A DNA stretch of 64,000 nucleotides from Myxococcales bacterium (GTDB lineage: Bacteria > Myxococcota_A > Polyangia > Polyangiales > Polyangiaceae). The notes below the pieces were generated by a model. The model did no database searches. It saw only the letters and a program-made list of their open reading frames with translations, and was not told the origin of the DNA. Where the stretch lies: assembly GCA_012514535.1 (NCBI GenBank), contig JAAZAA010000056.1, positions 3,932 to 67,931 of the forward strand, written 5' to 3'. This document shows, piece by piece, positions 6,149 through 31,526 of the stretch; the first letter of the stretch is position 1, and each line of letters begins with the position of its first letter. The position numbers were made by a program, and so were the translations under genes.

Positions 6149-6838
6149 TCACTGACCGCTCATGGCTCGTAGCGCCGGCAAGTCCTTGAGCGTGAACCCG
6201 TTCTCGTCGCCGCCCACGGTGCCCGACCGCTCCCAGCGCGTCATCACTCGGATCGCCGTCTCCGCGCTGGTGCTGACGAGCTCCGCGAGCTCCTGCCTCG
6301 ACAAGTGGATGGGGATGCCGCTGGACCCGTCCTCGAAGTCGTCGCCGAAGCGCTCGTACAGGTTGATGAGGAGATGCGCCAGGCGCGCTTCGACGGTGCC
6401 GGCGCTCAGCACGTCGATGCGCTGCAGGAGGTTCTCCACCTTCGTCTGCGCGTTGCGCACCAACGCGGCCGCCAGCTCGTTGCTCGTCTTCATCGCCTCG
6501 AGGATGCGGTCGCGCGGCACGAGCGCTACCTCGACGTGCGCCGTCACCGCGATCGCCGCCGCCGGGTAGACGACCCCCTTGAGCAAGGCCAGGTCGCCGA
6601 CGCTGTCCGGTGGTCCGAAGAGCCCGCAGATGACCGACCGACCTCCGGCCGTCGGTCGAACGACCTTGAGCACCCCGCGCCGGACGACCACGAAGTGCCG
6701 GGGCTGATCGCCGGCATCCCAGAGGCGCTCTCGCCTGGACAGGGAGCGCAGGGTCGTGACCTCCGCCAACGACGACAGGGTGGATGCATCAACACCCGCC
6801 AGGGCGGGAGTGCGTTTCAAGACCTCGAGGACACCCAT
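6149..6838 (-). CDS. Crp/Fnr-family transcriptional regulator (cNMP-binding-like domain + C-terminal HTH)
   Basis: 229 aa. Beta-roll effector domain (RERLWDAGDQPRHFVVVRRGVLKVV), dimerisation helix, HTH (LSRQELAELVSTSAETAIRVMTRWERSG). No N-terminal Cys cluster of true FNR. AAGGAG sits 7 nt upstream of the ATG. Confidence 0.85.
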   Translation of the reverse strand: MGVLEVLKRTPALAGVDASTLSSLAEVTTLRSLSRRERLWDAGDQPRHFVVVRRGVLKVVRPTAGGRSVICGLFGPPDSVGDLALLKGVVYPAAAIAVTAHVEVALVPRDRILEAMKTSNELAAALVRNAQTKVENLLQRIDVLSAGTVEARLAHLLINLYERFGDDFEDGSSGIPIHLSRQELAELVSTSAETAIRVMTRWERSGTVGGDENGFTLKDLPALRAMSGQ

Positions 6839-7007
6839 GAGAACTCCTTAAGCAAAAATCGTTCCGCAACTCCGAGAGGCCCCGACCGCCGCCGCGAGAT
6901 CGAACCCCTCGGGGGACGCCAGCCGAGGTGAGCGCCTCGGGAACTCCTGGAGAGGTGACGCGCGGATTTGCGCGGTGCCGGGGCGCTGGCGCAAACCTTG
7001 CGGCGGC

Positions 7008-7514
7008 TCAGCACAGCTCCAGAAAAAGCGCGTTCTCGCATGCCTCGTGCTTCCGGAACGCCGCATAGGCACGGGCGAAGGCGAGCTCGATGGTCCGGGG
7101 GCTCACCCGCGGATCCCCCACCATCCGACGGACCTCATCGAAGGCGTTCAGCAATACTGGGTGTTCGGCGTCCAGTCGGGCGAGGACCTCGAGCTGCTCG
7201 GAGTTTCTCTGAGAGCGCACCTCCGGGAAGGAGGTGGCCACCTCGACGGCGAAGTGGCTCTCCAGGAGGCTCACGAGCTCCCCGAGGAGCCGGGCGGCGT
7301 CCGCATGGCGGACCTTCGTCTCGGCCTCGTCCTCGACCTCGTCCGTGGCGACGCGCTCCTCGATGCGCTGCAGCAGCTCGAGCAGCCGGCGGTGCTGCAG
7401 GATCGCGTGCAAACCGTCTTCCGTCCCCATGGGCCAAGGTCTGCTGTCCGCCGGCGCCGACGCGGCGCCCAGCGGGTCGCTGTGGGTCACTGCGGATCTT
7501 GCTGTGCTGGCCAT
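7008..7514 (-). CDS. Hemerythrin (HHE cation-binding) domain protein, Hr-1
   Basis: His/Glu pattern LQHRRLLELL, LLESHFAVE, LDAEHPVLL, FRKHEACENALF. The ORF track extends to 7583. I prefer ATG 7514 (MASTARS...), which gives ~169 aa like the paralogs and sits 14 nt after a sigma-54-like -12 element. Start is uncertain. Confidence 0.7.
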   Translation of the reverse strand: MASTARSAVTHSDPLGAASAPADSRPWPMGTEDGLHAILQHRRLLELLQRIEERVATDEVEDEAETKVRHADAARLLGELVSLLESHFAVEVATSFPEVRSQRNSEQLEVLARLDAEHPVLLNAFDEVRRMVGDPRVSPRTIELAFARAYAAFRKHEACENALFLELC

Positions 7515-7526
7515 CGTCCGCCGTAA

Positions 7527-7542
7527 AGCACCTTTCATGCCA
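7527..7542 (-). promoter_or_regulatory. sigma-54-type -24/-12 promoter-like motif in front of Hr-1
   Basis: Minus strand reads cTGGCAT-GAAAG-GTGCTt. GG and GC have consensus spacing. ATG 7514 lies 14 nt after the -12 C (7528). Confidence 0.5.
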
Positions 7543-7624
7543 GCATCGCCTCCGAGGCTCTCACAGGGGAGCCCCTCGCGCACTGACGGACGTCAGGTCG
7601 ACGGCTGACGAGCATCAGAGCCCC

Positions 7625-7663
7625 GGATCTCGCGGCGCCGTAGGGTGAGGGGCGCCGCGATCC
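7625..7663. promoter_or_regulatory. Inverted repeat in divergent Hr-1 / DGC intergenic region
   Basis: GGATC(T)CGCGGCGCC - N11 - GGCGCCGCGATCC, 13-bp arms with one bulged T. It lies ~85-120 bp upstream of the Hr-1 -24 element, a typical enhancer (UAS) distance. Confidence 0.4.
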
Positions 7664-7687
7664 TGCGTCCCCTTCCCTGGTGCACCC

Positions 7688-8170
7688 ATGAGCACGACCC
7701 CGCCTCCCCTCGTGTATTCCTGTTCCGGCTGTTCCAGCGCTGCGCAGATGGCGAACCATCTCGCCCTCCAGCTCGACCGCCGCGGCGTGGCGGAGATGTC
7801 CTGCATCGCCGGCGTCGGCGGCGACGTGCCTCAGCTCGTGAACATCGCCCGCTCCGGGCGCCCCATCGTCGCCATCGACGGCTGTCCCCTGCGCTGCGTG
7901 GCCCACTCCCTCGCCCGGCACGGCCTGACCCCCCAGCGGCAGGTGACCCTCTCCGAGTTCGGGGTGCGCCGGAAGGCCCACGAGGACTTCGACCGTGCCG
8001 AGGCCGAGCGCCTCCTCGAGGCCCTCAGCGCCGAGCTGCGCGACGGGCTCACTCCGCGACCGGAGCCGCGCTCCGCTCCGCGGGCTCCGTCGGAGGGATC
8101 GCCCGGGTCGGGTTCGGGTGGGCTGGCGAGCGGGCTGGCGCCGTCCCCTGCAGCCCCAAGCGCCCGCTGA
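7688..8170 (+). CDS. DGC-domain putative zinc/iron-binding protein
   Basis: VYSCSGCSSAAQMANHLA...MSCIAGVGGDV...IVAIDGCPLRC matches my memory of the DGC family (CxxC, then the DGC motif). The C-terminal ~45 aa are low-complexity and overlap the convergent NrfD-like gene. Confidence 0.65.
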   Translation: MSTTPPPLVYSCSGCSSAAQMANHLALQLDRRGVAEMSCIAGVGGDVPQLVNIARSGRPIVAIDGCPLRCVAHSLARHGLTPQRQVTLSEFGVRRKAHEDFDRAEAERLLEALSAELRDGLTPRPEPRSAPRAPSEGSPGSGSGGLASGLAPSPAAPSAR

Positions 8171-9365
8171 GCACGGGCAGCGCGACCTTGATGGAGACGG
8201 TCAAGATCATCAGGCAGAGCGCCCAAATCCCGGCGGTGACGCGCCACTCGGTGAGACTCGGCGCGTACTCCACGAGCTCGTGCAGGGTGCTGGGCACGAA
8301 GCCCGGGACGATCAACCCCATCCCCTTTTCAATCCAGACGCCCACGAAGGCGAGCGCACACGCGACGTTCAAGACCAGCTTGCTCGTACGTGAGGCGGGC
8401 AGGTGGAGCAGCAGCGCCGAGGCGACGTTGAAGGCGACGGCGGACCAGATCCAGGGCACGAGGCCGTGTTTCCCGTGGGATCCGAAGAACAGGTACTTCG
8501 CGGCGGTGGCGTGAGCTCCGCCCGTATAGAAGGCGGTGAACAGCTCGGAGCCGAGCATGAACAGGTTCAGGAGCACGGTCACCCGCAGCACGGAGGCGAG
8601 CGTCCGGAGAGGACCATCGCCGATGTGGAAGTCCGAGTACCTGCGGACGACCTGCAGCAGGAGGATCACGAAGGCGGGCCCCGTGATGAAGGCCGACGCG
8701 ATGAAGCGCGGAGCGAGCAGCGCCGAGTTCCAGAAGGGGCGCCCGCCGAGCCCGCTGTAAAGGAACGCCGTGACGGTGTGGATCGAGACCGCCCAGAAGA
8801 TGGAGAGGAAGACGAAGGGGAGATACCAGCGCTTGGCCGGCTTGCGGCCGAGGAACCGCATGTAGAGCAGGTAGCCGGTGATGTGCAGGTTGAGCAGCAG
8901 ATAGCCGTTCAGCACGATCACGTCCCAGGTGAGCATCGAGATCGGCCAGTTGAAACGGCCGAGCCCGGGCAGCAGATGCCAGAACCTGTCGGGGCGTCCG
9001 AGATCCGCCAACACGAAGGCGAGGCACAGGGAGATCGCCGCGATCGCCAGCATCTCCCCGATCAGCACCACGGAGTGCATCTCGTGGTCGTCGTACAGGT
9101 AGGCGGGGATGACCATCATCACGGCGCCCGCCGCGAGGCCCACCCCGAAGGTAAAGTTGGCGATGTAGAGCCCCCAGGAGACGTGATCGCTCATCCCCGT
9201 GAGGCCCATCCCCTCGACCACCTGATGAGCCCACGCGTTCGCACCCACCAGGGCCACGGCCGTGAGCACCGTCATCCACGCGTAGAAGCGCCAGGTGCCC
9301 TCGAAGCCCAACTTGAAGAGCTGCCAGAGGAAGCGCGGGTAGGTAGCGGCGTGACTCGAGCCCAT
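8049..9365 (-). CDS. NrfD/PsrC-family polytopic membrane quinol-interacting subunit
   Basis: 438 aa with multiple hydrophobic helices. N-terminus (FLWQLFKLGFEGTWRFYAWMTVLTAVALVG...SWGLYIANFTFGVGLAAGAVMM) is typical of NrfD/HybB-type subunits. The ATG lies 4 nt after the FeS gene stop. Confidence 0.85.
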   Translation of the reverse strand: MGSSHAATYPRFLWQLFKLGFEGTWRFYAWMTVLTAVALVGANAWAHQVVEGMGLTGMSDHVSWGLYIANFTFGVGLAAGAVMMVIPAYLYDDHEMHSVVLIGEMLAIAAISLCLAFVLADLGRPDRFWHLLPGLGRFNWPISMLTWDVIVLNGYLLLNLHITGYLLYMRFLGRKPAKRWYLPFVFLSIFWAVSIHTVTAFLYSGLGGRPFWNSALLAPRFIASAFITGPAFVILLLQVVRRYSDFHIGDGPLRTLASVLRVTVLLNLFMLGSELFTAFYTGGAHATAAKYLFFGSHGKHGLVPWIWSAVAFNVASALLLHLPASRTSKLVLNVACALAFVGVWIEKGMGLIVPGFVPSTLHELVEYAPSLTEWRVTAGIWALCLMILTVSIKVALPVLSGRLGLQGTAPARSPAHPNPTRAIPPTEPAERSAAPVAE

Positions 9366-9369
9366 GGGA

Positions 9370-10272
9370 TCACTCGTCGAAGAAGTAGAAGAAGCGAGGG
9401 CGCGTTCCGAGCTCCTCCTTCAGCACGAACACGCGCTTGTTCTCGAGCACCCAGCGGATCTCGCTGTCCGGGTCGAGGAGGTTGCCGAAGACGCGCGCCC
9501 CCGTGGGGCACGCCTCGAGGCAGGCGGGGAGACGCCCTTCCCGGGTCCGATGCAGGCAGAACGTGCACTTCTCCACGACGCCCGCGGGGCGAATGCGGTT
9601 CGAGAGGTAGGCCTGGTCGGGGTTGATGTCCTCGGGGGCGAGCTCTGGCTTGTGCCAGTTGAAGCGCCGCGCGTGGTAGGGGCAAGCTGCCTCGCAGTAG
9701 CGACAGCCGATGCACCAGTTGTAGTCCACGACGACGATGCCGTCGGACTCCTTCCACGTGGCCTGCACGGGGCACACGTCCACGCAAGGAGGATTGTCAC
9801 ACTGCTGACACTGCACCGGCAGGTAGTACTTACCTGGCGCGGGCACCTCGTGGTCGTAGGTCGCGTTGCCCTGCTCCAGGTCGAAGGAGCCCTGATCCAT
9901 CTCGAGCACCCGGATGTACGAGTTGTTCGTCGCTCGATCGTGGTTGTTCTCCTCGTGGCAGGCCTCGGCGCAGCGGCGGCACCCGATGCACACGCTCAGG
10001 TTCAGCGCGTAACCGAACTGCACGTCCTCCATCGGGCGGACGTCGCGGATGTGGACGTCGCGCCCGTACTCGGCGGCCGTCTCCTCCTCCAGGCGCCTCA
10101 GCACCCGCTCCATCTCCTCCTTGTCGAGTTCGCGGTAGTGACGCTGGAGGAACTCGTCGAGGCTGAGGTCCCGCGCCCACTCCCGGAGCGGCGCCATGGC
10201 CTGCGCGAAGGCGCCGGCCCCCAACGTGGTGCCCACCACCTTCAGGGCGACACGTCGATTGACCTTAGTCAT
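9370..10272 (-). CDS. Tat-exported 4Fe-4S ferredoxin-type subunit (NrfC/HybA/PsrB-like)
   Basis: I chose internal ATG 10272, giving twin-arginine signal MTKVNRRVALKVVGTTLGAGAFAQA. Several CxxCxxCxxxC clusters (CIGCRRCAEAC, CQQCDNPPCVDVC, CIGCRYCEAAC, CTFCLHR). The ATG overlaps the upstream cytochrome stop by 8 nt (ATGACTAA). Confidence 0.85.
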   Translation of the reverse strand: MTKVNRRVALKVVGTTLGAGAFAQAMAPLREWARDLSLDEFLQRHYRELDKEEMERVLRRLEEETAAEYGRDVHIRDVRPMEDVQFGYALNLSVCIGCRRCAEACHEENNHDRATNNSYIRVLEMDQGSFDLEQGNATYDHEVPAPGKYYLPVQCQQCDNPPCVDVCPVQATWKESDGIVVVDYNWCIGCRYCEAACPYHARRFNWHKPELAPEDINPDQAYLSNRIRPAGVVEKCTFCLHRTREGRLPACLEACPTGARVFGNLLDPDSEIRWVLENKRVFVLKEELGTRPRFFYFFDE

Positions 10273-10879
10273 GGGGGGCCTCCGGGGCGTGCGTGGGCTC
10301 GGACAGGAAGCGATCGCGCGGCGGGTGCACCGGGTGGCCCCCCCGATACGCGGGCTCGTGAGGGTCGTGGCAATCGACGCAATGATTGCGGCGCCGCTCC
10401 CCCCGCGAGAGGTCCCAGTACCCGCGCATGCCGCCGTGGGATCCACGCCGGTAGTCGCGGGTCTGGGGGCCGTGGCACTGCGCGCAGAGCTGGAGCGCCT
10501 CGCTCCCGGGCAACACCTCTCCACTGGCGAGGCGCAGCTCGTGCGTCCGCTCGTCGTCGTGACAGGAGCTGCAGTGGAGCTCGCCGTGACGAACCGTCAG
10601 GCCAGCGTGGAACTCACGCAGCTCTCCGGCCGCATCGGGCAACGAGGTGGCGCTCCGCTGCGCGTGGCAGCTGACGCAGGCGACTCGACGGGGTCGCCCC
10701 AGAGCATCGAGCTGCCCGCTCGGCACGCCGCCGAGTCGGGAGCCGTCGATGATCACCCGCCCGCTGGGCAGGCCGGGAGCGGCTCCGAGCTCTTGCATGC
10801 GCGGAGCGTCGGGTCGGTTGCACGCCGCGGCGCAACCGATGAGGAAGAAGCAGAAGGGGAGCGAGACTCGTTGCGGCAC
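10265..10879 (-). CDS. Tetraheme c-type cytochrome, predicted lipoprotein
   Basis: Four CxxCH motifs (CVSCH, CSSCH, CAQCH, CVDCH). In-frame GTG 10879 gives (M)PQRVSLPFCFFLIGCAAAC, a lipoprotein-type signal. The longer ORF-track N-terminus is Arg-rich junk. Confidence 0.75.
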   Translation of the reverse strand: MPQRVSLPFCFFLIGCAAACNRPDAPRMQELGAAPGLPSGRVIIDGSRLGGVPSGQLDALGRPRRVACVSCHAQRSATSLPDAAGELREFHAGLTVRHGELHCSSCHDDERTHELRLASGEVLPGSEALQLCAQCHGPQTRDYRRGSHGGMRGYWDLSRGERRRNHCVDCHDPHEPAYRGGHPVHPPRDRFLSEPTHAPEAPHD

Positions 10880-10895
10880 CTGTAGGCGAGCGCTC

Positions 10896-10911
10896 TGCAG
10901 GGGACGTGCCA
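10896..10911 (-). promoter_or_regulatory. sigma-54-type -24/-12 promoter-like motif in front of the cytochrome c/FeS/NrfD operon
   Basis: Minus strand reads cTGGCAC-GTCCC-CTGCAg, one mismatch to TGGCAC-N5-TTGCA. GTG 10879 lies 18 nt after the -12 C. Confidence 0.55.
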
Positions 10912-10961
10912 GAAGCGCCCTCGACGTCGTCCTCCCTCCCGACGCAACCCCGGGGCGCGTC

Positions 10962-10973
10962 TGTCGATCGACA
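10962..10973. promoter_or_regulatory. Perfect 12-bp palindrome between divergent nap and cytochrome operons
   Basis: TGTCGATCGACA. It lies ~50 bp upstream of the cytochrome-operon -24 element and ~125 bp upstream of the napD -24 element. Confidence 0.4.
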
Positions 10974-11097
10974 CGGCCCGTGACGGTGTGAGGGGACGCG
11001 TCGATTTTTGCGGAGGTGGTCGGTGATGCGTGCAGCTTCTGCGGCGATGGTCCGACGTGACTCCGACAGTGCCGCCGTCTTCGCGCTCTCCGTGCCC

Positions 11098-11113
11098 TGG
11101 CGCGTGTCTTGCT
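11098..11113 (+). promoter_or_regulatory. sigma-54-type -24/-12 promoter-like motif in front of napD
   Basis: cTGGCGC-GTGTC-TTGCTt. napD ATG 11134 lies 22 nt after the -12 C. It shares the extended -12 string CTTGCTTGAG with the nnrS site. Confidence 0.55.
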
Positions 11114-11133
11114 TGAGGAGAACCGAATCTCCG

Positions 11134-11430
11134 ATGGCAATTAGCGGATTGGTCATCACCTTGGACGACGATCCAGAGCGCCGACGGGCGGCGCTCGCGG
11201 CTCTGCGCGCCGACGAGCGGCTGACCCTCGGAGAGCCCACGGGGAACCACCTCCCCCTGATCGCGGAGACGCGGCGGGCGCGCGAGGGCGTCGAGCTCAT
11301 CGAAGACCTGTTCACGCAGCCTGGCGTTCGGTTCGTCGACGTCGTCAGCGTGGACATGAGCGACGAGCTCGAGGACGGCGATCCAGCGTCCGCCGACTCC
11401 GTCGGGGACCCCAGCCACGAGGAAGGATGA
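11134..11430 (+). CDS. napD: NapD-like chaperone for periplasmic nitrate reductase
   Basis: Starts MAISGLVITLDDDPERR, comparable to the NapD core beta-strand (E. coli ...VCSLVVQA...). ~98 aa. Its stop overlaps the napA ATG (ATGA). The ORF-track start 11008 adds junk. Confidence 0.7.
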   Translation: MAISGLVITLDDDPERRRAALAALRADERLTLGEPTGNHLPLIAETRRAREGVELIEDLFTQPGVRFVDVVSVDMSDELEDGDPASADSVGDPSHEEG

Positions 11431-13838: not shown

Positions 13839-14590
13839 GCACTCCCGCCCCCGAACCCTCCGACGTCCTCCGCCACCGCATCTGGCACGTTGTGGGTGCG
13901 GTGGCCGTCGGCGTCGCGGCCGCCGGATTCCTGGCGGGCGTCGCGGGCCCCCCCGAGCGCGCGACGCCTCCTCGAGGAGAGGCGCCCGCCACGGAGGGCC
14001 CCGCCGTCCGCCGCTACTCCGAGATGGGCTCCGAACCGCGCGGTCCGAACGCGAACCTGTACGAGCGCGGCACCTCGGTCCTCGCGGTCGAGCGGGACCC
14101 CTACGCGGTCGTGGAGCGCACGGACGCCGAGCGCGCGGCTGCCCTCCGCGCCCGGGACGCGCGACGGGCCTACGACGGCGCGCCTCCCACGATCCCGCAT
14201 CCCATCGATCAGCGCCGGGCGCCGGACTGCTTGGCGTGCCACGGAGCGGCGGTCCAGATCGACGGCAAGATCGCCCCGACGATGAGCCATCCCCGCTACG
14301 ACAGCTGCACCCAGTGTCACGTCGTGGCCGCCGATCCACGCCCCGGCGGCGCGGCCCCGGAGGGAGTGGCCAACACCTTCGTGGGGACCTCGTCGGAGAA
14401 CCCGGGAGCGCGCGCGTGGCCAGGAGCTCCCCCGACGATCCCCCACGCGACGTCCATGCGCACGGACTGCCTGAGCTGCCACGGCTCCTTGGGGCGCGTG
14501 GGACTGCGCACGAGCCACCCCTGGCGCCAGAGCTGCACCCAGTGCCACGCCCCCTCCGCGGAGCTCGATCAGCGCGGACCAACCCCGTAG
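13835..14590 (+). CDS. napB: NapB-type cytochrome c with two tandem NapB modules (four CxxCH)
   Basis: The ATG overlaps the napA stop (ATGA). N-terminal TM/signal anchor HVVGAVAVGVAAAGFLAGVAG. Module 1 is GAPPTIPH...DCLACHG...MSHP...SCTQCH. Module 2 is GAPPTIPH...DCLSCHG...TSHP...SCTQCH. Confidence 0.8.
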   Translation: MSTPAPEPSDVLRHRIWHVVGAVAVGVAAAGFLAGVAGPPERATPPRGEAPATEGPAVRRYSEMGSEPRGPNANLYERGTSVLAVERDPYAVVERTDAERAAALRARDARRAYDGAPPTIPHPIDQRRAPDCLACHGAAVQIDGKIAPTMSHPRYDSCTQCHVVAADPRPGGAAPEGVANTFVGTSSENPGARAWPGAPPTIPHATSMRTDCLSCHGSLGRVGLRTSHPWRQSCTQCHAPSAELDQRGPTP

Positions 14591-14603
14591 GACCACCCCG
14601 CTC

Positions 14604-15094: not shown

Positions 15095-15110
15095 CGGCAT
15101 ACCCCTTGCT
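15095..15110 (+). promoter_or_regulatory. sigma-54-type -24/-12 promoter-like motif in front of nnrS
   Basis: CGGCAT-ACCCC-TTGCTt followed by GAGAGAGATC and in-frame GTG 15122, 13 nt after the -12 C. Confidence 0.5.
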
Positions 15111-15121
15111 TGAGAGAGATC

Positions 15122-22289: not shown

Positions 22290-22305
22290 TGCAGGGTACA
22301 TGCCA
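22290..22305 (-). promoter_or_regulatory. sigma-54-type -24/-12 promoter-like motif in front of the multicopper oxidase
   Basis: Minus strand reads tTGGCAT-GTACC-CTGCAa. GTG 22277 lies 14 nt after the -12 C (22291). Confidence 0.55.
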
Positions 22306-22423: not shown

Positions 22424-22439
22424 TGGCCCGGATATTGCC
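22424..22439 (+). promoter_or_regulatory. sigma-54-type -24/-12 promoter-like motif in front of the cupin gene
   Basis: aTGGCCC-GGATA-TTGCCc. The cupin ATG 22484 lies 46 nt after the -12 C and is preceded by GAGGGAGAAG. Palindrome CGCAGATCCTGCG (22400-22412) lies just upstream. Confidence 0.4.
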
Positions 22440-22840: not shown

Positions 22841-22883
22841 TCTGCAGGCGGCCGTCGGCATCGGGGGGACGTTCGACGGTGGA

Positions 22884-23594: not shown

Positions 23595-23606
23595 GAGCCC
23601 CTCCTC

Positions 23607-23622
23607 AGCACGCGCCATGCCA
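23607..23622 (-). promoter_or_regulatory. sigma-54-type -24/-12 promoter-like motif in front of ric
   Basis: Minus strand reads cTGGCAT-GGCGC-GTGCTg. ATG 23594 lies 14 nt after the -12 C (23608). The intervening GAGGAGG could alternatively be a Shine-Dalgarno. Confidence 0.45.
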
Positions 23623-23707
23623 GCCGGGCCTCCGACGAGTTCCGGTGCTTTTCGGAGCCAGCGGCCACGCCGCGTCACCCTGGACTCGTTCCAGAGCCGG
23701 TCACAGA

Positions 23708-24712
23708 ATGGAACACGTGGAACGAGCCTCCTCAACCTGCAGCGTCTGTGGCCTGGTCCCCCTGGCGCCACGCCTGAAGGGCGCCACCCACGTGGTGGCG
23801 CGCAGTCCGTCCATGCAGGTGCTCCTCAAACGCGCGGCGCGGTTCGCTCAAAGCGACGCGCCCATCGCGGTCCTCGGGGAGACGGGGACCGGCAAGGAGG
23901 TCGTCGCGCGGGTCGTCCACGCTAACTCACCGCGGGCGCAGCGCCCCTTCGTGGCCGTGAACGTGGCCGCGCTGCCGACGGAGCTCCTCGAATCGGAGCT
24001 CTTCGGCCACGGCAAAGGGGCGTTCACGGGGGCCGCCGCCGCCCGGCGCGGGCTCTTCGAGGAGGCGGACGGGGGCACCCTCTTCCTCGACGAGATCGGA
24101 GAGATGTCCCTCCCCCTGCAGGCGAAGCTCCTCCGGGCGCTGCAGGACGGTGAGCTCCGGCGCGTCGGGGAGAACCAGGCGTTCTCCGTCGACGTGCGGG
24201 TGATCTGCGCCACCCACCGGAACCTGCGCGAGCGCGTCATGAACGGGCAGTTCCGGGAGGATCTCTTCTATCGCCTCAAGGTGCTCACGCTCGAGGTGCC
24301 CCCCCTCCGCGAGCGCCGCGAGGACCTCTTGCCGCTGGCACGACACTTCCTCACCCGGGAGAACACCAGCGCCATCGGGTTCGCCGCCGCCGCCGCGGAG
24401 CGGATGCTCGGTTACGCCTGGCCCGGCAACGTCCGGGAGCTCGAGAACGTCGTCAAGCATGGGGCCGCCCTCGCGAGCGGCCAGGAGATCGTCGTCGCCG
24501 ACCTCCCCGAGGAGTTGCTCCAGGATCGCCCTCCGCCCAGCGGTCCCACCGCGCCGACCAACCCATTCCGCACCCTCGCCGAGGTCGAGCGGGAGCACAT
24601 CCTCCGCGTGCTCGACGCCTGCGGGGGCTCCCAGTCCGAGGCGGCTCGGGTCCTCGGGGTCGCGCGGAACACCCTCTGGCGAAAGCTACGCAACCCCGAG
24701 CCAGCGGCATGA
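23708..24712 (+). CDS. sigma-54-dependent enhancer-binding protein consisting only of AAA+ core and C-terminal Fis-type HTH (no receiver/GAF/PAS domain)
   Basis: Walker A GETGTGKE, sigma-54 contact loop GAFTGA, Walker B LFLDEIGE, R-finger region, C-terminal HTH SQSEAARVLGVARNTLWRKL. Only ~35 aa precede the AAA+ core, and they contain CSVCG. Confidence 0.9.
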   Translation: MEHVERASSTCSVCGLVPLAPRLKGATHVVARSPSMQVLLKRAARFAQSDAPIAVLGETGTGKEVVARVVHANSPRAQRPFVAVNVAALPTELLESELFGHGKGAFTGAAAARRGLFEEADGGTLFLDEIGEMSLPLQAKLLRALQDGELRRVGENQAFSVDVRVICATHRNLRERVMNGQFREDLFYRLKVLTLEVPPLRERREDLLPLARHFLTRENTSAIGFAAAAAERMLGYAWPGNVRELENVVKHGAALASGQEIVVADLPEELLQDRPPPSGPTAPTNPFRTLAEVEREHILRVLDACGGSQSEAARVLGVARNTLWRKLRNPEPAA

Positions 24713-24748
24713 TTCCTGCCCCTGCTCGCCGTCGAGGAGCAAGAACCC

Positions 24749-25267
24749 ATGTTCGTCCAGATCGGCCGCCGCCAGCCCCCCGAGGGGCTCGTCACGTTGT
24801 TCCTCGAGTGCCACGGGCGGATCCGCGCGTTCACGGAGATCGCGCTACGGCTCGGTGAGCAAGAGGACGTGCCCCCCGAGGAGGTCGTCGACGCCTCGGC
24901 GCGCTGTCTGCGGTACTTCACGGAGGCCCTGCCCCTCCACATCGCCGACGAGGAGGAGAGCCTCCTCCCGCTTCTCCGGGGGCGCGAGGCGGCCGTCGAC
25001 GCCGCCCTCGACCTCATGCACGCGCAGCACGAGGCGCACGATCCGCTGCTCGCGGAGCTCGTCGACGCGCTCCGCGAGCGGAGGGGCGCCCCCGAGGCGA
25101 CGAGCGCCCGCGCGCGCCTTGCGACCGCCGCGCGGCGCGCGCAGCCGGAGCTGTTGCTGCACCTGGAGCACGAGGAGCGCGTCCTCTTCCCCGCTGCTCG
25201 ACGGCTCCTGACAGGAGCCGAGGAGCAGGCAGTACTCACCGAGCTGCGCGCGCGTCGTCATCGCTGA
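24749..25267 (+). CDS. Hemerythrin (HHE) domain protein, Hr-2, immediately downstream of the EBP
   Basis: LFLECHGRIRAF, LPLHIADEEESLLP, MHAQHEAHD, LLHLEHEERVLFP. Starts 36 nt after the EBP stop on the same strand. Confidence 0.75.
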   Translation: MFVQIGRRQPPEGLVTLFLECHGRIRAFTEIALRLGEQEDVPPEEVVDASARCLRYFTEALPLHIADEEESLLPLLRGREAAVDAALDLMHAQHEAHDPLLAELVDALRERRGAPEATSARARLATAARRAQPELLLHLEHEERVLFPAARRLLTGAEEQAVLTELRARRHR

Positions 25268-25273
25268 AGCTAT

Positions 25274-25312
25274 CTCTTGCGACAGGCTCTTGCGACGGGC
25301 TCTTGCGACGGG
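25274..25312. repeat. 3 x 13-bp tandem repeat in a convergent intergenic spacer
   Basis: CTCTTGCGACAGG CTCTTGCGACGGG CTCTTGCGACGGG, between the Hr-2 stop (25267) and the GH9 stop (25330). Confidence 0.9.
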
Positions 25313-25329
25313 TGACCTCCACCGCGCGG

Positions 25330-28104
25330 TCAGTCCGCCCGGTGGGGCACTAGCCCGCTGCGGTGTTCACTGCCCCCGGCCGCCCACTCCCGGGGCGGCA
25401 GCCTCTTGGGAGCGAGCGTCGCGAACAACGCAACCAGCGGGGCCTGGGACTCCCACACGCTGAACTCACTCATGTTGACCGCCGTGCGCGCGTCCACGTA
25501 CCGGAGCCCGAGCGGCTGGGATCCGAAGGAAGGATGAAACGCCGCAGCCAACGGCGCGTACCAGCTCGAACCCGGCATGTTGGCGACGGGGCCGTACACG
25601 GGGAGACCGGGCATGGGCGGCATCCCCTTGTCCTTGATGAAGGCGAGCGAGTCCGTGTGCAGAGGCTCCTGGGGCGTCACACTGCCCATACCGGTGACGT
25701 AGGACATGCCATTCGGGTTCCCCCCGAGCACGTAGTCCGCGGCCAGGCTGAGGGCGTCGACGTACTCCTGAGCGGGGCCCTGAGCCGTGAGCGCTTGATA
25801 GATGGGATCGGCGTGCAGCCCCGTGGCGACGGATCTGCCCCAGTCGGGGGGCGTCGCCGACGGCCGCCCGTTGCGCATGGCGTGCTCGGACGAGAGGAAC
25901 CGCTGGGCCGTCGCCCGCGCCCTGTCACCGAGAGCCGCACGCACGAAGGTCACGGTGTTCTGGTTGGCTCCCTCCGCGTCGAGGTAGCCCATCAGATAAT
26001 CGCTGAGGACGGGGGCGTTGCCCGTGAAGGAGCCCGGGTACACGTGAGACCAGGTCAACAGCCGCCCGTTCAGGGCGTTGTTGCCTCCCAGACCCGACCA
26101 GAGGCCGTCGAAGGCGCTCCGGTGCGTGGCCTCGGAGGTCGCCCGCGCCAGCTCGCTCACCGCGTAGAGGCGAAACTCCGCCGGAGCGGCCGCCCGCGTC
26201 GCCCAGGCGGAGGCGCGGACCGCCCGCTGCAGCAGCGCATCGGCCCGCTTGGCGTCGTAGGGCCGCACCAGGTGGGACGCCTGCGCGAAGAGCCCCGCGA
26301 CATAGGCCGTATGCCAGGGCTCCGGGTCGTAGGTCCAGTAGGCGAGCCGGTCCTCGTCGGCGTAGTAGTAGCCGCGCGGGTGGTGGGACGACTCCACGCC
26401 GGCCCGGACGCTGCCATCGTCGTTCTGCAAATCCTCCCAGGCGCGCACGCTGTGCAACGCCTCATCGAGCAGATCGGAGATGCCGTTGCCGCTCTCCGGG
26501 ATGTCGAGCTGGCCGTCGAGCAGGGCGTCTCGGTTGGCTTCGAAGGCGCGCAGCAAGTACTGGGCGACGACGACGTGGAAGGGGCGGATGTCGAAATCCC
26601 CGGCGTCGTGGTGGCCGCCGAGCACGGGGCGCTCGTTGCTCTTGGGGGTGTTCGTCGGGAACATGCCGGAGCGGTAGCTCCGCCCGCTGACGAAATAGGC
26701 GCTGCAGTGGTCGGGGCCGCGGCTCCAGTCCGTGTACTTTTCGTCCAGGTCGCCGCACCAGCGATTGAGGAACAGCCCCCGAGCGACCACGTAGAACGCC
26801 TTCAGGGCGGCGTCCTCGCTCACCGCGGTCGGATAGGACACCCCCACCCCTGGCACGCGGACACGGTAGCGCACGCCCTCCGCGGGCGGGACGCTCGCCA
26901 GATCGACCTGGTGCACCCGTCCGCCGGCCTCCGTGTCCCGGGCGGAGCGCTCGCTGACGGGAAGGTCCGCGGCGACCTCGCGCTTGGGGCGCAGGGCGTT
27001 GCGCGCGTCCGCGACCACGCTCACCGTGGCACCGAGCTGGCTCGGATCCACGTGGCCCCCGTCGCCGAGGTACGCGTGCAGGTAGGCGTACCGCTTGGTG
27101 GCTCTCGGGTTGTAACCGACTTGATTGACCTTGATGAGCGGGGACTCGAGGTAGCGGTCGCTGAACGGGACGACGACGTCGAGATCGGTGTTGGACCCAC
27201 CGCCGGAGTGCGTGACGGCGAGGAGCTCTCGCTCTCCGATCGGCTCCCCCAAGACGAGGAACAGGTGATCGTCGATGTCGACGACGTTGTCGGTCCCCCA
27301 TTTCTCCCACCCCACGGGGTAGCTCGGTTGCCCGACGGGGATGCTGCGACGACGCACGGCCGTCACCGGGACCTCCGTCCCGTCGGCGCGGCTCACGCGC
27401 CACTGTCCCCCCTGCCAGGCGGCGCCACGCGCCCCTTGGAGGCGCGACCCGTCGTACCGCGTCTCCCGGGTCTCCAGCACGAGCTGGAGGACGTTCGGGG
27501 CCACCGCATGCACGGAGCGCAGGGGCGTGTCGAGCTTCACTCGCGGGCCTCCGTGGGTCCGCGCGTGGGCGATCCCCCAGAGTGGCCCGCTCGCCGTGGT
27601 CGCCTCCAGACGAACGAACACGTCGGTGCTCGCGGCGATCTTTTCGATCACGTGGCTCGTGGCGGCGCCATCCAGGCTCGCGATCTCCACCTCGACGGGC
27701 AGCTGGTCCGCATCGCCCTTGGGCTCCGGCCCCATGAAGACCTTGATCTCCTCAGCGCCCTCGATGGGATCCCAAGACAGCTCGACGCGGCTGGAGCTGA
27801 CCTCCTCGACGCGCACCGCCACGTCGCCGAAGTCGATGCCCGCGTCCGGGTCCGAGTCCTCCCCGGGGCTCGGCGGCGGAGTGGTCGGTGGATCTTCCGT
27901 CTGGGGGGTCGACGGCGGCGTCGACGGGTCAGAGGGGCCCGCAGGAACGCCTGGGTCGGCGTCCTGCGGAGTACCTGGGCTCGCCTCCTCTTCCGGCGCA
28001 CATGCGGACCCGAGCAGGAGCACGAACGAACTGGCGATGGCGAGGCTGCGCCCGCGGTGGCTGCGGAGCCCGACGGAAGCGCGGGGGCGAAGGTCCGATT
28101 TCAT
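25330..28104 (-). CDS. Glycoside hydrolase family 9 endoglucanase with N-terminal FN3/Ig-like modules, predicted lipoprotein
   Basis: GH9 signature GGHHDAGDFDIRPF with downstream catalytic-domain similarity. ATG 28104 gives MKSDLRPRASVGLRSHRGRSLAIASSFVLLLGSAC. The ORF-track start 28395 adds an Arg-rich extension. Confidence 0.85.
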   Translation of the reverse strand: MKSDLRPRASVGLRSHRGRSLAIASSFVLLLGSACAPEEEASPGTPQDADPGVPAGPSDPSTPPSTPQTEDPPTTPPPSPGEDSDPDAGIDFGDVAVRVEEVSSSRVELSWDPIEGAEEIKVFMGPEPKGDADQLPVEVEIASLDGAATSHVIEKIAASTDVFVRLEATTASGPLWGIAHARTHGGPRVKLDTPLRSVHAVAPNVLQLVLETRETRYDGSRLQGARGAAWQGGQWRVSRADGTEVPVTAVRRRSIPVGQPSYPVGWEKWGTDNVVDIDDHLFLVLGEPIGERELLAVTHSGGGSNTDLDVVVPFSDRYLESPLIKVNQVGYNPRATKRYAYLHAYLGDGGHVDPSQLGATVSVVADARNALRPKREVAADLPVSERSARDTEAGGRVHQVDLASVPPAEGVRYRVRVPGVGVSYPTAVSEDAALKAFYVVARGLFLNRWCGDLDEKYTDWSRGPDHCSAYFVSGRSYRSGMFPTNTPKSNERPVLGGHHDAGDFDIRPFHVVVAQYLLRAFEANRDALLDGQLDIPESGNGISDLLDEALHSVRAWEDLQNDDGSVRAGVESSHHPRGYYYADEDRLAYWTYDPEPWHTAYVAGLFAQASHLVRPYDAKRADALLQRAVRASAWATRAAAPAEFRLYAVSELARATSEATHRSAFDGLWSGLGGNNALNGRLLTWSHVYPGSFTGNAPVLSDYLMGYLDAEGANQNTVTFVRAALGDRARATAQRFLSSEHAMRNGRPSATPPDWGRSVATGLHADPIYQALTAQGPAQEYVDALSLAADYVLGGNPNGMSYVTGMGSVTPQEPLHTDSLAFIKDKGMPPMPGLPVYGPVANMPGSSWYAPLAAAFHPSFGSQPLGLRYVDARTAVNMSEFSVWESQAPLVALFATLAPKRLPPREWAAGGSEHRSGLVPHRAD

Positions 28105-28117: not shown

Positions 28118-28133
28118 TGCAGGCTTCGGGCCA
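28118..28133 (-). promoter_or_regulatory. sigma-54-type -24/-12 promoter-like motif in front of GH9 cellulase 1
   Basis: Minus strand reads gTGGCCC-GAAGC-CTGCAa. ATG 28104 lies 15 nt after the -12 C (28119). There is no Shine-Dalgarno in between (ATATCCCGCTTCC). Confidence 0.5.
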
Positions 28134-28592: not shown

Positions 28593-29114
28593 TCAGTCGA
28601 GAGCGCGCGGAGGACCCATCTCCCTCAGCACGGCGCGCTGCTCCTCCGGGGTGAGCAGAGATCCGAGCGCGGGATAGAGCACGCGCTCTTCGTACGCGAG
28701 GTGTTTCCCGAGCTCGAAGGCCAGACGCTCGGCGAGCACCAACAGGCGCTGTCGATGGCGCGCGGAGGTGGGGTGGCAGCGCACGCCTTCGAGCTCCGCG
28801 AGGAGGGCCTGGATCAGAGGAGCCTGGGCGCGGCGGTGACTGCGCGCGAGCTCCAGGGCCTCGTCGATGTCCGGGCGCTTGCCGAGGAGGCGCGGGAAGA
28901 GACACCTCTCCTCGATGGCCGTCTCGAGAGGGAGCACCTCGAGCAGGTAGCGCTCGCAGCGCCGACACATCGCGACCAGCTCGGCCTCCGTGAGCTGGCC
29001 CCCGCGCCCCACGGCCACCGCCAGGCTGAGCACCCTGCGGAAGGTCGCGTGGCCTTGAAACCAGCGCGTCGCGAGGTCATCGGAGCTGCGAAGGCTCTCC
29101 ACGACGGCCCCCAA
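28593..29114 (-). CDS. Hemerythrin-like domain protein, Hr-3 (paralog of Hr-2 with an apparent ligand substitution)
   Basis: Colinear with Hr-2: RWFQGHATFRRV / LFLECHGRIRAF, EVLPLETAIEERCLFP / EALPLHIADEEESLLP, ARSHRRAQ / MHAQHEAH, LGKHLAYEERVLYP / LLHLEHEERVLFP. The start is unclear; in-frame TTG 29114 or GTG 29102 give ~170 aa, and ORF-track 29327 is probably too long. Confidence 0.6.
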   Translation of the reverse strand: MGAVVESLRSSDDLATRWFQGHATFRRVLSLAVAVGRGGQLTEAELVAMCRRCERYLLEVLPLETAIEERCLFPRLLGKRPDIDEALELARSHRRAQAPLIQALLAELEGVRCHPTSARHRQRLLVLAERLAFELGKHLAYEERVLYPALGSLLTPEEQRAVLREMGPPRALD

Positions 29115-29330
29115 GCAGAAAGCGTACCGATCGCGAGAAAAGTGAGATCCGCAGGGGAATGATCGCCTCCTCGAGGCTTTCGGGATAGCGGAAAGCTCAT
29201 CGCCAGACTGCAAGCCCTGCACTCCCGGGCGAAAGGCACGCAGATCCTGCACACTGGCCGACGACCGCCCCACGCCCCGGGCGGCTCGAAGGACCGACGA
29301 GAGCGGCCGCTCGGATGGATGGCGCACCGA

Positions 29331-29390: not shown

Positions 29391-29406
29391 TGGCATGCCC
29401 GATGCT
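29391..29406 (+). promoter_or_regulatory. sigma-54-type -24/-12 promoter-like motif in front of Hr-4
   Basis: tTGGCAT-GCCCG-ATGCTa. The first start codon downstream of the predicted TSS is ATG 29446. The ORF-track ATG 29395 lies inside the TGGCATG element. Confidence 0.5.
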
Positions 29407-29445
29407 ACTCGTTCGCCTCGGACCGCTCAGCGCGGCGCATCCCCC

Positions 29446-29973
29446 ATGACCTCGACTCCTCTCGACCGCATCACCGACTATCTCGTGCGAGATCACGAGC
29501 GCCTGCACGCGCTCCTCGAAGCCGCGATGGCCGGAGGGCGCTTCTCCCCCGCCCCCTTCGCGACCTTCCGCCAGGGGCTCCTGCGCCACATCGCCATCGA
29601 GGAGAAGGTCCTCCTGCCCGCGGCGCGCCTGGCCCAGGGAGACGTCCCCTTGGCCCGCGCCTTCGACCTGCGCGTGGATCACGCCGCCCTGACCTCTCTC
29701 CTGGTCCCTCCGCCGGACGTCGCCCTGTGCAGGGAGATCGCCTCGCTCCTGGCAGTCCACGACGCCAAGGAAGAGGGACCAGAAGGCGTCTACGCCGAGT
29801 GTGAGGCCTTGTTCTCCCCCGCCCGCTCCGCGGCCCTCGCGGCGGAGGCCATCGGGTTCCGCTCGGTGCGCGTGGCGCCGCACCTCGATCGCCCGGGAGT
29901 CTATCGCACCGCCGCCGCGGCCCTGGCCGCCGCCCGGCGCATGAAGCCGCCGAAGGAGGCCGAGCGCCCCTGA
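29446..29973 (+). CDS. Hemerythrin (HHE) domain protein, Hr-4
   Basis: ITDYLVRDHERLHALL, LLRHIAIEEKVLLP, LRVDHAALTSLL, LLAVHDAKEEG. Confidence 0.7.
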   Translation: MTSTPLDRITDYLVRDHERLHALLEAAMAGGRFSPAPFATFRQGLLRHIAIEEKVLLPAARLAQGDVPLARAFDLRVDHAALTSLLVPPPDVALCREIASLLAVHDAKEEGPEGVYAECEALFSPARSAALAAEAIGFRSVRVAPHLDRPGVYRTAAAALAAARRMKPPKEAERP

Positions 29974-30005
29974 TCGCGGCGCCCGGCGCTCCGTCCCCCC
30001 GGGCG

Positions 30006-30809
30006 TCACCGGCTCAGGAGCGCGTACCAGGGGCGCCAGGTGGCGTGCACGCCGTGCGCGCTCGCGTTCCCCTCGCCGTAATCCCGCATGAGCGCCCGGA
30101 GCGCACCGGGCGCCAGGGGGCTCCCCCCCGGGTACCGGGACGCCCCCATGGCTCGTAGCACCTCGAAGAACTCCCGCGCGTCGCGGTAGACCCGAGGGAT
30201 GCTCTCGCTCTGAAACGCGACGAGTCGTAAGCCCGCCGCCGAGCAAGCGCGCTCCAGTTGCTCCCGCGAGTGCCCGATGCCGGGCGCGACGTCGAAGCGC
30301 GCCAAAGCCAGCGCCAGCTCGGGCAAGTTGTCCGTGGCGAAGCCGCTGACCAGATAGCGCCCCCCGGGCCGCAGGCGCTGGCCGACCCCGTCCACGTGCG
30401 CAGGGAGATCGTCGAGCCACTGCACCATCGCGCTGCTCGCGATCAAGTCGAAGCGTGCCCGCAGCCCGTCCCGCACCCGGCTGGCGTCGAGCTGGAGCCA
30501 ATGGACGCGGCGCGCGCCGTCTCCCCCCAAGCGCCGGCGCGTCTGCTCCAGCATGCCCCTGGACAGATCCGTGCACAGGAGCCTGGCGCCCGGGAATTTC
30601 CCCACGAGGAGCTCCGAGAGGTGCCCGGTGCCACAGCCCAGCTCGAGAACGTGCCGCGGGGACTCGCCCTCGAGCTGGAGCAGCTTCACGAGCCGGCGCG
30701 CCATGAGGCGCTGGACCTCGGACACCGCGTCGTAGCGCCGCGCCGCCCGCTCGAAGCTGAGCTGACGGTAGCGGATCGCGACCGGGAGCATCGCGGGTCC
30801 AGCGCCCAT
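30006..30809 (-). CDS. Class I SAM-dependent methyltransferase (BioC-like)
   Basis: SAM motif I VLELGCGTGHLSE, then DLSRGML and FDLIASSAMVQW. Internal ATG 30809 (or 30791). The ORF-track 5' extension overlaps the cytochrome gene. Confidence 0.75.
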   Translation of the reverse strand: MGAGPAMLPVAIRYRQLSFERAARRYDAVSEVQRLMARRLVKLLQLEGESPRHVLELGCGTGHLSELLVGKFPGARLLCTDLSRGMLEQTRRRLGGDGARRVHWLQLDASRVRDGLRARFDLIASSAMVQWLDDLPAHVDGVGQRLRPGGRYLVSGFATDNLPELALALARFDVAPGIGHSREQLERACSAAGLRLVAFQSESIPRVYRDAREFFEVLRAMGASRYPGGSPLAPGALRALMRDYGEGNASAHGVHATWRPWYALLSR

Positions 30810-30847
30810 GGCTCCGGCTTCCTTCCCGTCGTCGTGGTGGCGGGCGC

Positions 30848-31288
30848 TCAGCCGTCCTTGCGGAAGCCGCGCACGAGGGCCACCAGCTCCTTCAGCACCT
30901 CGGGCTTCCCCTTGATGTCCGGATGAGCGGGCATACCCGGGCTCTTTCCGACTGCGGCGCCGCCCTCGGTGATGATCTTCGCGATGTCCTCGTCGCTCGT
31001 CTCGTCCTGCCAGGCGGGATCCGCGAAGGCGCGAGGCTTGGGATCGATGGCCGCGGCGCCGGGGCCGTCGCCGGCGCCCGTCGTCCCGTGGCACACCACG
31101 CACCGCGCCTTGAAGTACTTCTCGGCCTCTGCGGCAGGCCCTCCCGCGGGCGCCGCGGGCGCCGTTTGCGTCGAGGGTGCCTCCACGCGCACCGGCTCCT
31201 GCTGGGGCGGCGCCTCCTCTTGCTTGTCCTTGCACCCCACCAACGCGGTGACCCCAAGCGCGACGACGATACTCGTGAACCTAGACAT
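30848..31288 (-). CDS. Monoheme class I c-type cytochrome, predicted lipoprotein
   Basis: MSRFTSIVVALGVTALVGC lipobox, one CVVCH motif, and a distal Met in GKSPGMPAH. AGGAGG ends 12 nt upstream of ATG 31288. Confidence 0.8.
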   Translation of the reverse strand: MSRFTSIVVALGVTALVGCKDKQEEAPPQQEPVRVEAPSTQTAPAAPAGGPAAEAEKYFKARCVVCHGTTGAGDGPGAAAIDPKPRAFADPAWQDETSDEDIAKIITEGGAAVGKSPGMPAHPDIKGKPEVLKELVALVRGFRKDG

Positions 31289-31510
31289 GTGCGACGATGT
31301 TCCTCCTGCTCGCGACCGACGCCGAACGGCGCTCTCGCGGTCGCTCGCCATCCCTCTCGGCTGGTACCGCTTCTTCCCGCAGGGTCATTCCTGCGACGGG
31401 CGGCCTGCTCCTGCGAACCGTGCGTTCGCACTCGGCGCGAGCCATGGTGCCGTCGATGGGTGAGCGATGCAATGATGATCGTCACGGCAGACAGCGGCGG
31501 GCACCAGATG

Positions 31511-31526
31511 CGGCACGCCTCTTGCT
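31511..31526 (+). promoter_or_regulatory. Orphan sigma-54-type -24/-12 promoter-like motif in a 1.1-kb non-coding gap
   Basis: CGGCAC-GCCTC-TTGCTg, matching the consensus at every position except the first T. No start codon within 15 nt. The next plausible coding features are the Mo-enzyme relic (31811) and GH9-2 (32392). Confidence 0.4.

Follow-up and report, generated by a model that had tools for sequence, protein, structure and literature searches.

The closest described counterparts of the locus examined here are the NorR units (norR/norVW, norAB and hmp), in which the gene of a sigma-54 enhancer-binding protein (EBP) lies divergent from a gene for nitric oxide (NO) detoxification or repair, activator repeats stand upstream of the -24/-12 promoter element, and autoregulation is suggested by a site close to the gene of the regulator (PMC1274295). 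In Myxococcus xanthus, a member of the same phylum as our organism, the PexR/ahpC-katB unit likewise places an EBP gene and its target divergently, and the short stretch between the two genes holds dyad enhancers; these enhancers overlap the promoter region of the regulator, for whose gene leaderless transcription has been suggested (PMC12754779). Here we analyzed a 64,000-nt stretch of a Myxococcales bacterium (contig JAAZAA010000056.1, positions 3,932 to 67,931; henceforth the window), in which sigma-54-type -24/-12 motifs stand immediately before the start codons of several genes, among them ric, which is divergent from an EBP gene. This ric/EBP pair shares with NorR units the gene order, the activator repeats upstream of the -24/-12 element and the site near the regulator gene, and with PexR the divergent arrangement and the dyad enhancers in a short intergenic region. 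The target is also of a related kind: in R. eutropha, norAB encodes as its first product NorA, a di-iron protein of the Ric/DnrN type.

The locus nevertheless differs from each of these systems. Unlike NorR, the window EBP has no GAF or other sensor domain, Pfam giving only AAA+, lid and HTH_8 matches, and it scores 320 against the NorR equivalog cut-off of 476. Its enhancer, GTTCCA-N12-TGGAAC with a third half-site, is unlike the tandem GT-N7-AC sites of NorR, and we know of no NorR target described with a promoter abutting its start codon. An AAA+ plus HTH architecture alone is also found in EBPs of the PspF/HrpRS type, although the PspF equivalog score of the window protein falls far below the cut-off. 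PspA or HrpV controls those EBPs in trans. PexR differs in having a metal-binding GAF sensor and the enhancer CACCG-N6-CGGTG, and its suggested leaderless transcript starts from a sigma-A promoter, not a sigma-54 promoter (PMC12754779).

The sigma-70-type leaderless genes of Deinococcus-Thermus, Actinobacteria and rhizobia resemble the genes reported here in their fixed short promoter-to-start distance, lack of a Shine-Dalgarno (SD) sequence and mostly ATG starts (PMC12340547, PMC3616915, PMC4842269). Those genes use the -10 box of the housekeeping sigma factor, whereas here an enhancer-dependent -24/-12 element would serve; the Bradyrhizobium study notes that leaderless genes have had no specific promoters described for them (PMC4842269). 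Atlases of transcription start sites (TSSs) that report both sigma-54 promoters and leaderless mRNAs treat them separately (PMC3616915, PMC4842269 and PMC3847290 among them). Full-text searches combining leaderless with sigma-54, RpoN or Myxococcus returned no literature linking sigma-54 promoters to leaderless transcripts. To our knowledge, phyla rich in leaderless genes mostly lack sigma-54. Both sigma-54 promoters and leaderless mRNAs are well known, and we found no description of their combination.

We consider it fairly probable that the motifs in the window are genuine sigma-54 promoters, that those lying 13-15 nt before a start codon are transcribed into leaderless or near-leaderless mRNAs translated without an SD sequence, and that ric is driven by the adjacent EBP. 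What the sequences show directly is the motif with its spacing, orientation and conservation, the enhancer, a bimodal set of distances, and which genes have an SD; sigma-54 dependence, the position of the 5' ends and leaderless translation are what we infer. The sites are listed below, with distances running from the conserved C of the -12 element to the start codon:

23607..23622, minus strand: putative ric promoter, TGGCATGGCGCGTGCT; 14 nt to ATG 23594
7527..7542, minus strand: putative promoter of the hemerythrin gene Hr-1, TGGCATGAAAGGTGCT; 14 nt to ATG 7514, no SD
22290..22305, minus strand: putative promoter of the multicopper oxidase (MCO) gene, TGGCATGTACCCTGCA; 14 nt to GTG 22277, no SD
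15095..15110, plus strand: putative nnrS promoter, CGGCATACCCCTTGCT; 13 nt to GTG 15122
28118..28133, minus strand: candidate promoter of the cellulase gene GH9-1, TGGCCCGAAGCCTGCA; 15 nt to ATG 28104, no SD
10896..10911, minus strand: candidate promoter of the cytochrome c/FeS/NrfD operon, TGGCACGTCCCCTGCA; 18 nt to GTG 10879
11098..11113, plus strand: candidate napD promoter, TGGCGCGTGTCTTGCT; 22 nt to ATG 11134
22424..22439, plus strand: putative cupin promoter, TGGCCCGGATATTGCC; 46 nt to ATG 22484, with GAGGGAGAAG as SD in the leader
29391..29406, plus strand: putative promoter of the hemerythrin gene Hr-4, TGGCATGCCCGATGCT; 41-nt leader to ATG 29446
31511..31526, plus strand: orphan motif, CGGCACGCCTCTTGCT; no nearby start, GH9-2 (plus strand) beginning at least about 490 nt downstream
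6851..6866, minus strand: weak extra candidate at the crp/fnr-family gene, CGGAACGATTTTTGCT; 14 nt to ATG 6838

The first ten 16-mers had been proposed in a first-pass annotation made from the letters alone. All ten are present at the positions and on the strands given there, each start codon named there is indeed an ATG or a GTG, the recomputed distances are again 14, 14, 14, 13, 15, 18, 22, 46 and 41, and the sigma-54 spacing GG-N10-GC holds in every one. The crp candidate CGGAACGATTTTTGCT had been missed; it has AAGGAG in its spacer, and its sequence is identical in a relative, L089. With a poor -24 half and a good SD, this site is ambiguous and may be a weak sigma-54 promoter or a chance resemblance. 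Confidence is strong for ric, good for the conserved-island sites of MCO, Hr-1, nnrS, Hr-4 and cupin, and weak for crp, while the cytochrome operon (18 nt), napD (22 nt) and GH9-1 (15 nt) are plausible sigma-54 promoters. The leaders of Hr-4 and cupin, at 41 and 46 nt, are of ordinary length. Members of the short-spaced subset would be ric, Hr-1, MCO and nnrS, with GH9-1 a probable addition and the cytochrome operon a looser one.

The motif is enriched where promoters are expected. In the window, whose G+C content is 70%, the pattern TGGCAYN6TGCW occurs five times against 0.22 expected from shuffles, and all five matches are sites of the first-pass annotation. The looser TGGC-N8-TGC has 20 matches (10.6 expected); on a gene map built with the annotation's start codons for these genes, the 6.1 kb of intergenic DNA contain ten of them (expectation about 1.0) and the 57.9 kb of coding DNA the other ten (expectation about 9.6). 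Because coding matches are at the chance level and intergenic ones about ten-fold above it, the excess is entirely intergenic. Eight of the ten intergenic matches aim at a gene whose start lies within 50 nt; those at 6987 and 31974 do not. The orphan at 31511, a looser match outside this set, likewise has no start close by.

Distances were also determined in a pooled set of 783 kb, consisting of the window and the fetched loci with near-duplicates removed, and they peaked at 14 nt. At a threshold of at least six of the eight flanking consensus bases, GG-N10-GC had 119 matches, while gaps of 8, 9, 11 and 12 gave 61-77; in the strong tier the N10 gap gave 36 matches and the other gaps 4-6, and the lowest tier (5/8 flanking matches) showed no enrichment. 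The first ATG or GTG of a long open reading frame (ORF) lay exactly 14 nt from the -12 C in 16 of the 119 matches (background 0.84%) and 13-15 nt from it in 23 (background 2.5%), whereas the wrong-gap controls had 0-1 matches at 14 nt. The binomial P of about 1e-14 overstates the case, as orthologous promoters share ancestry and are not independent; after allowing for orthology, about 15 independent promoter lineages show the spacing.

Besides ric, the members at 14 nt in the window are Hr-1, MCO and the weak crp candidate. Elsewhere they include the gene following the EBP gene in three loci, namely an FeS-assembly gene (L005), a hemerythrin gene (L008) and a further gene (L014), as well as a second ric in L003, which has its own separate promoter inside the operon, at 14 nt and without an SD. 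PhaR-like genes (VQTT...RVLRRYANRKIYD) on two unrelated contigs of high-GC organisms, L037 (minus strand, 2422) and L083 (minus strand, 8007), have sigma-54-type motifs 14 and 15 nt before GTG. Judged from these sequences, the 14-nt geometry is not an accident of the window, since it recurs at independent promoters in many genomes. A looser group at 16-19 nt contains the window cytochrome operon and genes in L009, L010, L068/L084 and L100; L068/L084, the cytochrome operon and L009 hint at a second, looser spacing class. In L068 (minus strand, 11574) and L084 (minus strand, 11534), from related organisms of 59% G+C, the motif is conserved 18 nt before the GTG of a gene whose product begins VT..ERELRARW...

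The ric/EBP intergenic region itself reads as a textbook enhancer-dependent promoter layout, and is made up of the following features:

22884-23594, minus strand: ric, encoding ScdA_N plus hemerythrin domains
23708-24712, plus strand: gene of the sigma-54 activator (EBP), Pfam AAA+ (GAFTGA) and HTH_8
23688..23723, no strand assigned: candidate enhancer (upstream activating sequence) for the local EBP, GTTCCA at 23688 and TGGAAC at 23709 and 23718

The intact GAFTGA loop reported earlier for the EBP was confirmed. The enhancer overlaps the EBP start codon (ATGGAACAC). To survey related loci, 10 loci with EBP orthologues were fetched (L002-L008, L097-L100), and a metagenome scan with the C-terminal HTH of the family gave about 10 further true orthologues among 80 loci, most of the remainder being other EBP families. 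In nearly all orthologous loci, ric or an operon containing it is divergent from the EBP gene at about 85-135 bp, and each of the 16 lineages with this arrangement has a GG-N10-GC motif upstream of ric or its operon; the recurrent form facing ric is TGGCACG-N4-GTGCT. The GTTCCA-N12-TGGAAC layout over the EBP start is likewise present in nearly all of them, typically as GTTCCA-N2-3-GTTCCA-N3-5-TGGAAC, and is degraded in L097. The distance from enhancer to the ric -24 element is about 65-100 bp in nearly all related loci.

The EBP family consists of proteins of about 330 aa with 70-77% identity, all without a sensor domain; the nearest named relatives are Polyangia, Polyangiaceae, Sorangium and Kofleriaceae metagenome-assembled genomes, which places the organism among myxobacteria of the class Polyangia, and no NCBIfam equivalog reaches its cut-off for the window protein. 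About 30 residues precede the AAA+ domain and carry a nearly invariant CxxCGLxP (C11, C14); in the family alignment C167 is also nearly invariant and C305 invariant. These conserved cysteines could act as a sensor, through their thiols or a bound metal. The EBP gene is often, though not always, followed by one for a hemerythrin or Ric-like protein (L003, L006, L008, L010), and the following gene sometimes has its own sigma-54-type promoter at 14-16 nt. A second group of EBPs with short N-termini was seen in L016, L024, L026, L031 and L038/L040, with three or four cysteines before the AAA+ domain (C..PF...C..C......C); these Cys-rich short EBPs may form a wider family of small sensor modules.

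Start codons of ric can be set independently of the motif, because a Q(T/S)VA...VLDHS block follows the initial methionine by 5-15 residues in all orthologues. The distances from the -12 C to these starts fall into classes as follows:

14 nt: the window and L001, L003/L012 (the operon's first gene), L007, L009, L014, L025; mostly no SD
15 nt: L017; no SD
15 or 27 nt (ambiguous): L099; GGAAGG before the 27-nt option
19 nt: L100; no SD
26, 26, 27, 28, 30, 32 and 38 nt: L006 (Sorangium cellulosum), L013, L015, L005, L098, L097 and L008, respectively; an AGGAG-type SD in each

By lineage, the distance is 14 in six, 15 in one, 15/27 in one, 19 in one and 26-38 in seven. An SD-like 4-mer was scored in 2/13 short-class lineages versus 6/7 long-class lineages (Fisher P = 0.004), and the two short-class lineages with such a 4-mer are those of the window ric and the L003 operon. 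Among short-class members, no sequence is common to the 12-nt spacers. Proteins with the N-terminus MLDR... are found alike in L014 (14 nt, no SD) and in L013, L005 and L098 (26-30 nt, SD). As both spacer classes serve this N-terminus, one and the same start codon is reached by two designs.

Conservation in close relatives was then used to judge the sites and the start codons. A scan of genome contigs with Ric gave a single relative. L001, 'Proteobacteria bacterium OH_SBlB_69' in GTDB, is syntenic with window positions 12972-33693 at about 87% nucleotide identity, and L089 spans Hr-1 and crp, with 74% amino acid identity in Hr-1. In this comparison, which the first-pass annotation had suggested, no motif was lost at Hr-1, ric, MCO, nnrS, cupin, GH9-1, Hr-4 or the orphan site. 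For seven promoters, 102 of 112 motif positions are identical with GG and GC invariant, while the short spacers are only about 73% identical and the upstream DNA is often unalignable. Spacing is unchanged at ric (TGGCACGGTGCGTGCT in L001) and at cupin (TGGCTCGGATGTTGCT in L001), and Hr-1 keeps its ATG at 14 nt in L089 (TGGCATGAAAAGTGCT). The MCO motif is identical at 15/16 positions and its spacer at 6/12 with a 1-nt indel; at nnrS and Hr-4, L001 can be aligned only from the motif's first base onward, the DNA upstream being unalignable. The orphan is kept in L001 as AGGCATGCCTCTTGCT, with a conserved upstream block and poorly conserved sequence downstream. At GH9-1 the motif matches at 16/16 positions, and this comparison does not discriminate because the whole upstream region (125 nt) is conserved too. 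No diverged relative covers the cytochrome operon.

An ATG also lies inside the TGGCATG of the motif, in frame at ric, Hr-1, MCO and Hr-4. It was rejected as the start of three of these genes: L001 has ACG at ric, a +1 indel at MCO and a +2 indel at Hr-4. At Hr-1, the ATG at 14 nt is the sole downstream start codon common to the window and L089, and the in-frame ATG inside TGGCATG is kept in L089 as well. For MCO, GTG 22277 yields a lipoprotein signal ending LASAC, and for nnrS, public gene calls of 408 aa correspond to GTG 15122. Codon-position mismatches of nnrS against L001 after the GTG are 5/2/11, and its start is only partly settled. A lipoprotein-type signal also follows ATG 28104 of GH9-1, and GTG 10879 gives a lipoprotein signal on the cytochrome with four CxxCH motifs. 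ATG 11134 of napD yields the N-terminus MAISGLVITL, which we take to resemble NapD N-termini, and implies a leader of about 8-10 nt without an SD. Public calls (L091-L096 and L002) differ at several of these genes: Hr-1 is begun at the ATG inside TGGCATG (176 aa), the tetrahaem cytochrome is called at 177 aa without a signal peptide, and napD at 134 aa overruns its own candidate promoter, while L002 lists the EBP with 467 aa.

In sigma-54 numbering, the conserved C is position -12 and the canonical +1 lies 12 nt downstream. Differential RNA sequencing in Campylobacter jejuni placed the sigma-54 motif GGaa-N6-tTGCTt 8-13 nt upstream of the TSS (PMC3847290), and from this range the holoenzyme would start about 10-15 nt after the -12 C. 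With the TSS in that range and the start codon 13-15 nt from the C, the genes of the subset would be transcribed with a leader of 0-3 nt, which cannot accommodate an SD and lies within the usual definition of leaderless as at most 5 nt (quoted in PMC12754779), and translated without an SD. The sharp peak at 14, not 12, suggests that transcription may begin at the very first base (A or G) of the start codon. A pyrimidine at -1 and a purine at +1 had been considered as support for this TSS and were dropped, since 'CC ATG' precedes most genes whatever the leader. At ric, the sensor-less EBP would bind the GTTCCA/TGGAAC enhancer, which overlaps its own start codon, and activate the closed complex, and it would probably also autoregulate. 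Sigma-54 is vital in M. xanthus, and a leaderless pexR transcript in Myxococcota has been proposed, not demonstrated (PMC12754779); both ingredients are thus plausibly present in the phylum. The literature searched contained no TSS-to-start distances for M. xanthus sigma-54 promoters.

The first-pass annotation had also placed the whole set in a single regulon under the local EBP. Whereas the sigma-54, near-leaderless reading has support at the level of sequence, this part has none, because the half-sites cluster only once, at ric. In the window, no GTTCCA/TGGAAC cluster was found beyond 23688-23723, no TGTTCCA-N8-18-TGGAACA elsewhere, and no EBP gene besides 23708-24712. As the enhancer is present only at ric and the window encodes only one EBP, the promoters lacking the enhancer probably use activators encoded elsewhere.

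Several points weigh against sigma-54-driven, near-leaderless transcription of these genes. The EBP enhancer was not found at the other nine sites, and the window contains no rpoN. Distances of 22 nt (napD) and 19 nt (ric of L100) are intermediate between the distance classes, and many of the data points are orthologous, hence not independent. A canonical +1 leaves a leader of 2 nt, not zero. MCO, nnrS and three others start with GTG, a codon at which leaderless messages are poorly translated in E. coli. The GGAGG-type sequence in the 12-nt spacers of the window ric and the L003 operon could serve transcripts from upstream promoters, and an ATG some 87 nt farther downstream is an alternative start for nnrS.

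The last two points are those on which an alternative with leadered mRNAs would build: the sigma-54 promoters would be real, translation would rely on an SD-containing transcript from an upstream sigma-70-type promoter or on downstream starts, and the 14 nt would reflect promoter packing where intergenic regions are short. The ric spacer (12 nt) contains GAGGAGG in both the window and L001, the crp spacer contains AAGGAG, and dual sigma-A and sigma-54 promoters are known for ahpC in M. xanthus (PMC12754779). By analogy with ahpC, a read-through message or one made from a sigma-A promoter may serve as a further template for translating the window ric. For the class as a whole we regard leadered mRNAs as unlikely, given that 11/13 short-class lineages have no SD-like sequence, that the ric starts are pinned by N-terminal homology 5-15 residues before the conserved QTVA motif, and that packing would spread the distances instead of producing a spike at exactly 14. 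The sigma-70 consensus had no match in 6000-25900, which is weak and hardly informative evidence at 70% GC.

The element might instead be an operator for a dimeric transcription factor, located in the promoter or 5' untranslated region (UTR) of a sigma-70-type transcript. Many ric copies do contain a partial dyad, GCACG-N3-CGTGC; CG at positions 11-12 in about half of the ric-family motifs gives a 13-bp dyad, which is perfect in L001, L003 and L097, and RNAalifold selects the same small hairpin. However, T1 and G2 are conserved without symmetric partners, all sites are directed at the gene, the dyad is missing from most sites other than those of ric (as at Hr-1, MCO, nnrS and Hr-4), the GCA...TGC part is already inherent in the sigma-54 consensus, and the EBP has its own, different enhancer alongside; an operator is therefore improbable. 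The first-pass annotation had also raised an RNA-level feature of the 5' UTR, structured or protein-bound. A weak 6-bp hairpin is possible, yet no Rfam family exceeds its threshold in the window, single-sequence folding z-scores (-1.1 to +1.5) are no better than those of shuffles, the invariant GG/GC pairs do not covary, and at several genes conservation begins at the motif, not upstream, all of which makes such a feature very unlikely. That the matches arose by chance in GC-rich DNA we consider extremely unlikely: loose versions of the pattern are common, coding matches are at the chance level and the 5/8 tier is not enriched, but the roughly ten-fold intergenic enrichment, the specificity for the N10 gap, the conservation and the distance spike speak against it. 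These sequence patterns contradict chance for the strong sites; individually, the orphan, GH9-1, napD and crp sites may be coincidental.

Beyond the window, a broader form of the sigma-54 reading is possible, and we hold it tentatively: Polyangia, and possibly other phyla, may have a conserved class of sigma-54 promoter exactly 14 nt from the start, at which RNA polymerase initiates on the start codon. It would give leaderless, SD-independent messages with near-zero basal transcription for NO/redox-stress proteins (Ric, hemerythrins, NnrS, MCO), with ric served by a sensor-less EBP whose CxxCGLxP is a possible sensor. If the 5' ends map to the start codons, transcription of these genes would be fully gated by an activator with no 5' UTR and hence no UTR-based control, and a fixed 14-nt rule would give a handle on start-site selection by sigma-54. 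For annotation, the public gene calls of Hr-1, the cytochrome and napD conflict with the promoter geometry, and the analysis flags an uncharacterized, widespread EBP family tied to ric.

A search for upstream motifs shared among the ten sites gave only one exact 14-mer at two sites, together with weak partial copies. This 14-mer, CACGCAGATCCTGC, lies at 22398-22411 (MCO/cupin intergenic region) and 29237-29250 (upstream of Hr-4), with weaker copies upstream of Hr-1 (7659-7667) and nnrS (15041-15052). It has the core palindrome GCAG-N3-CTGC, both copies are kept in L001 and L002, and it was detected in no genomes other than close relatives; some factor may bind there. A perfect 12-bp palindrome, TGTCGATCGACA, stands at 10962-10973, midway between the back-to-back candidate promoters of the cytochrome operon and napD. 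Inverted CGTCAG/CTGACG repeats are present at 7583-7610, 40-70 nt upstream of the Hr-1 -24 element, and are partly conserved in L089.

By Pfam matches, the left half of the window is a nitrate/nitrite/NO island. In window order, its genes and those that follow are:

1979-5812, minus strand: HemD-NirB-NirD fusion, a single 1277-aa ORF with HemD-like, NirB-like (FAD/NAD, BFD, sirohaem) and NirD/Rieske parts
6149-6838, minus strand: Crp/Fnr-family regulator
7008-7514, minus strand: Hr-1 hemerythrin
between Hr-1 and the cytochrome operon: a DGC-domain gene
8049-10879, minus strand: cytochrome c/FeS/NrfD operon
after the cytochrome operon: napD, napA, a NapB-like gene, then nnrS
after nnrS: a radical-SAM gene, an NMO gene, moaA, the MCO gene and the cupin gene, then ric and the EBP gene
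24749-25267, 28593-29327 and 29446-29973 (Hr-4): further hemerythrins
right of the EBP gene: two GH9 cellulases (GH9-1, GH9-2)

The Hr-1 protein is identical in 139 blocks of the sequence collection, so the organism has been sampled many times. Within 23 kb, the window holds four hemerythrin-domain paralogues plus Ric. Farther right, at 35396-47056 on the minus strand, a 3887-aa ORF has a very strong coding signature, with a GC3 of 0.91.

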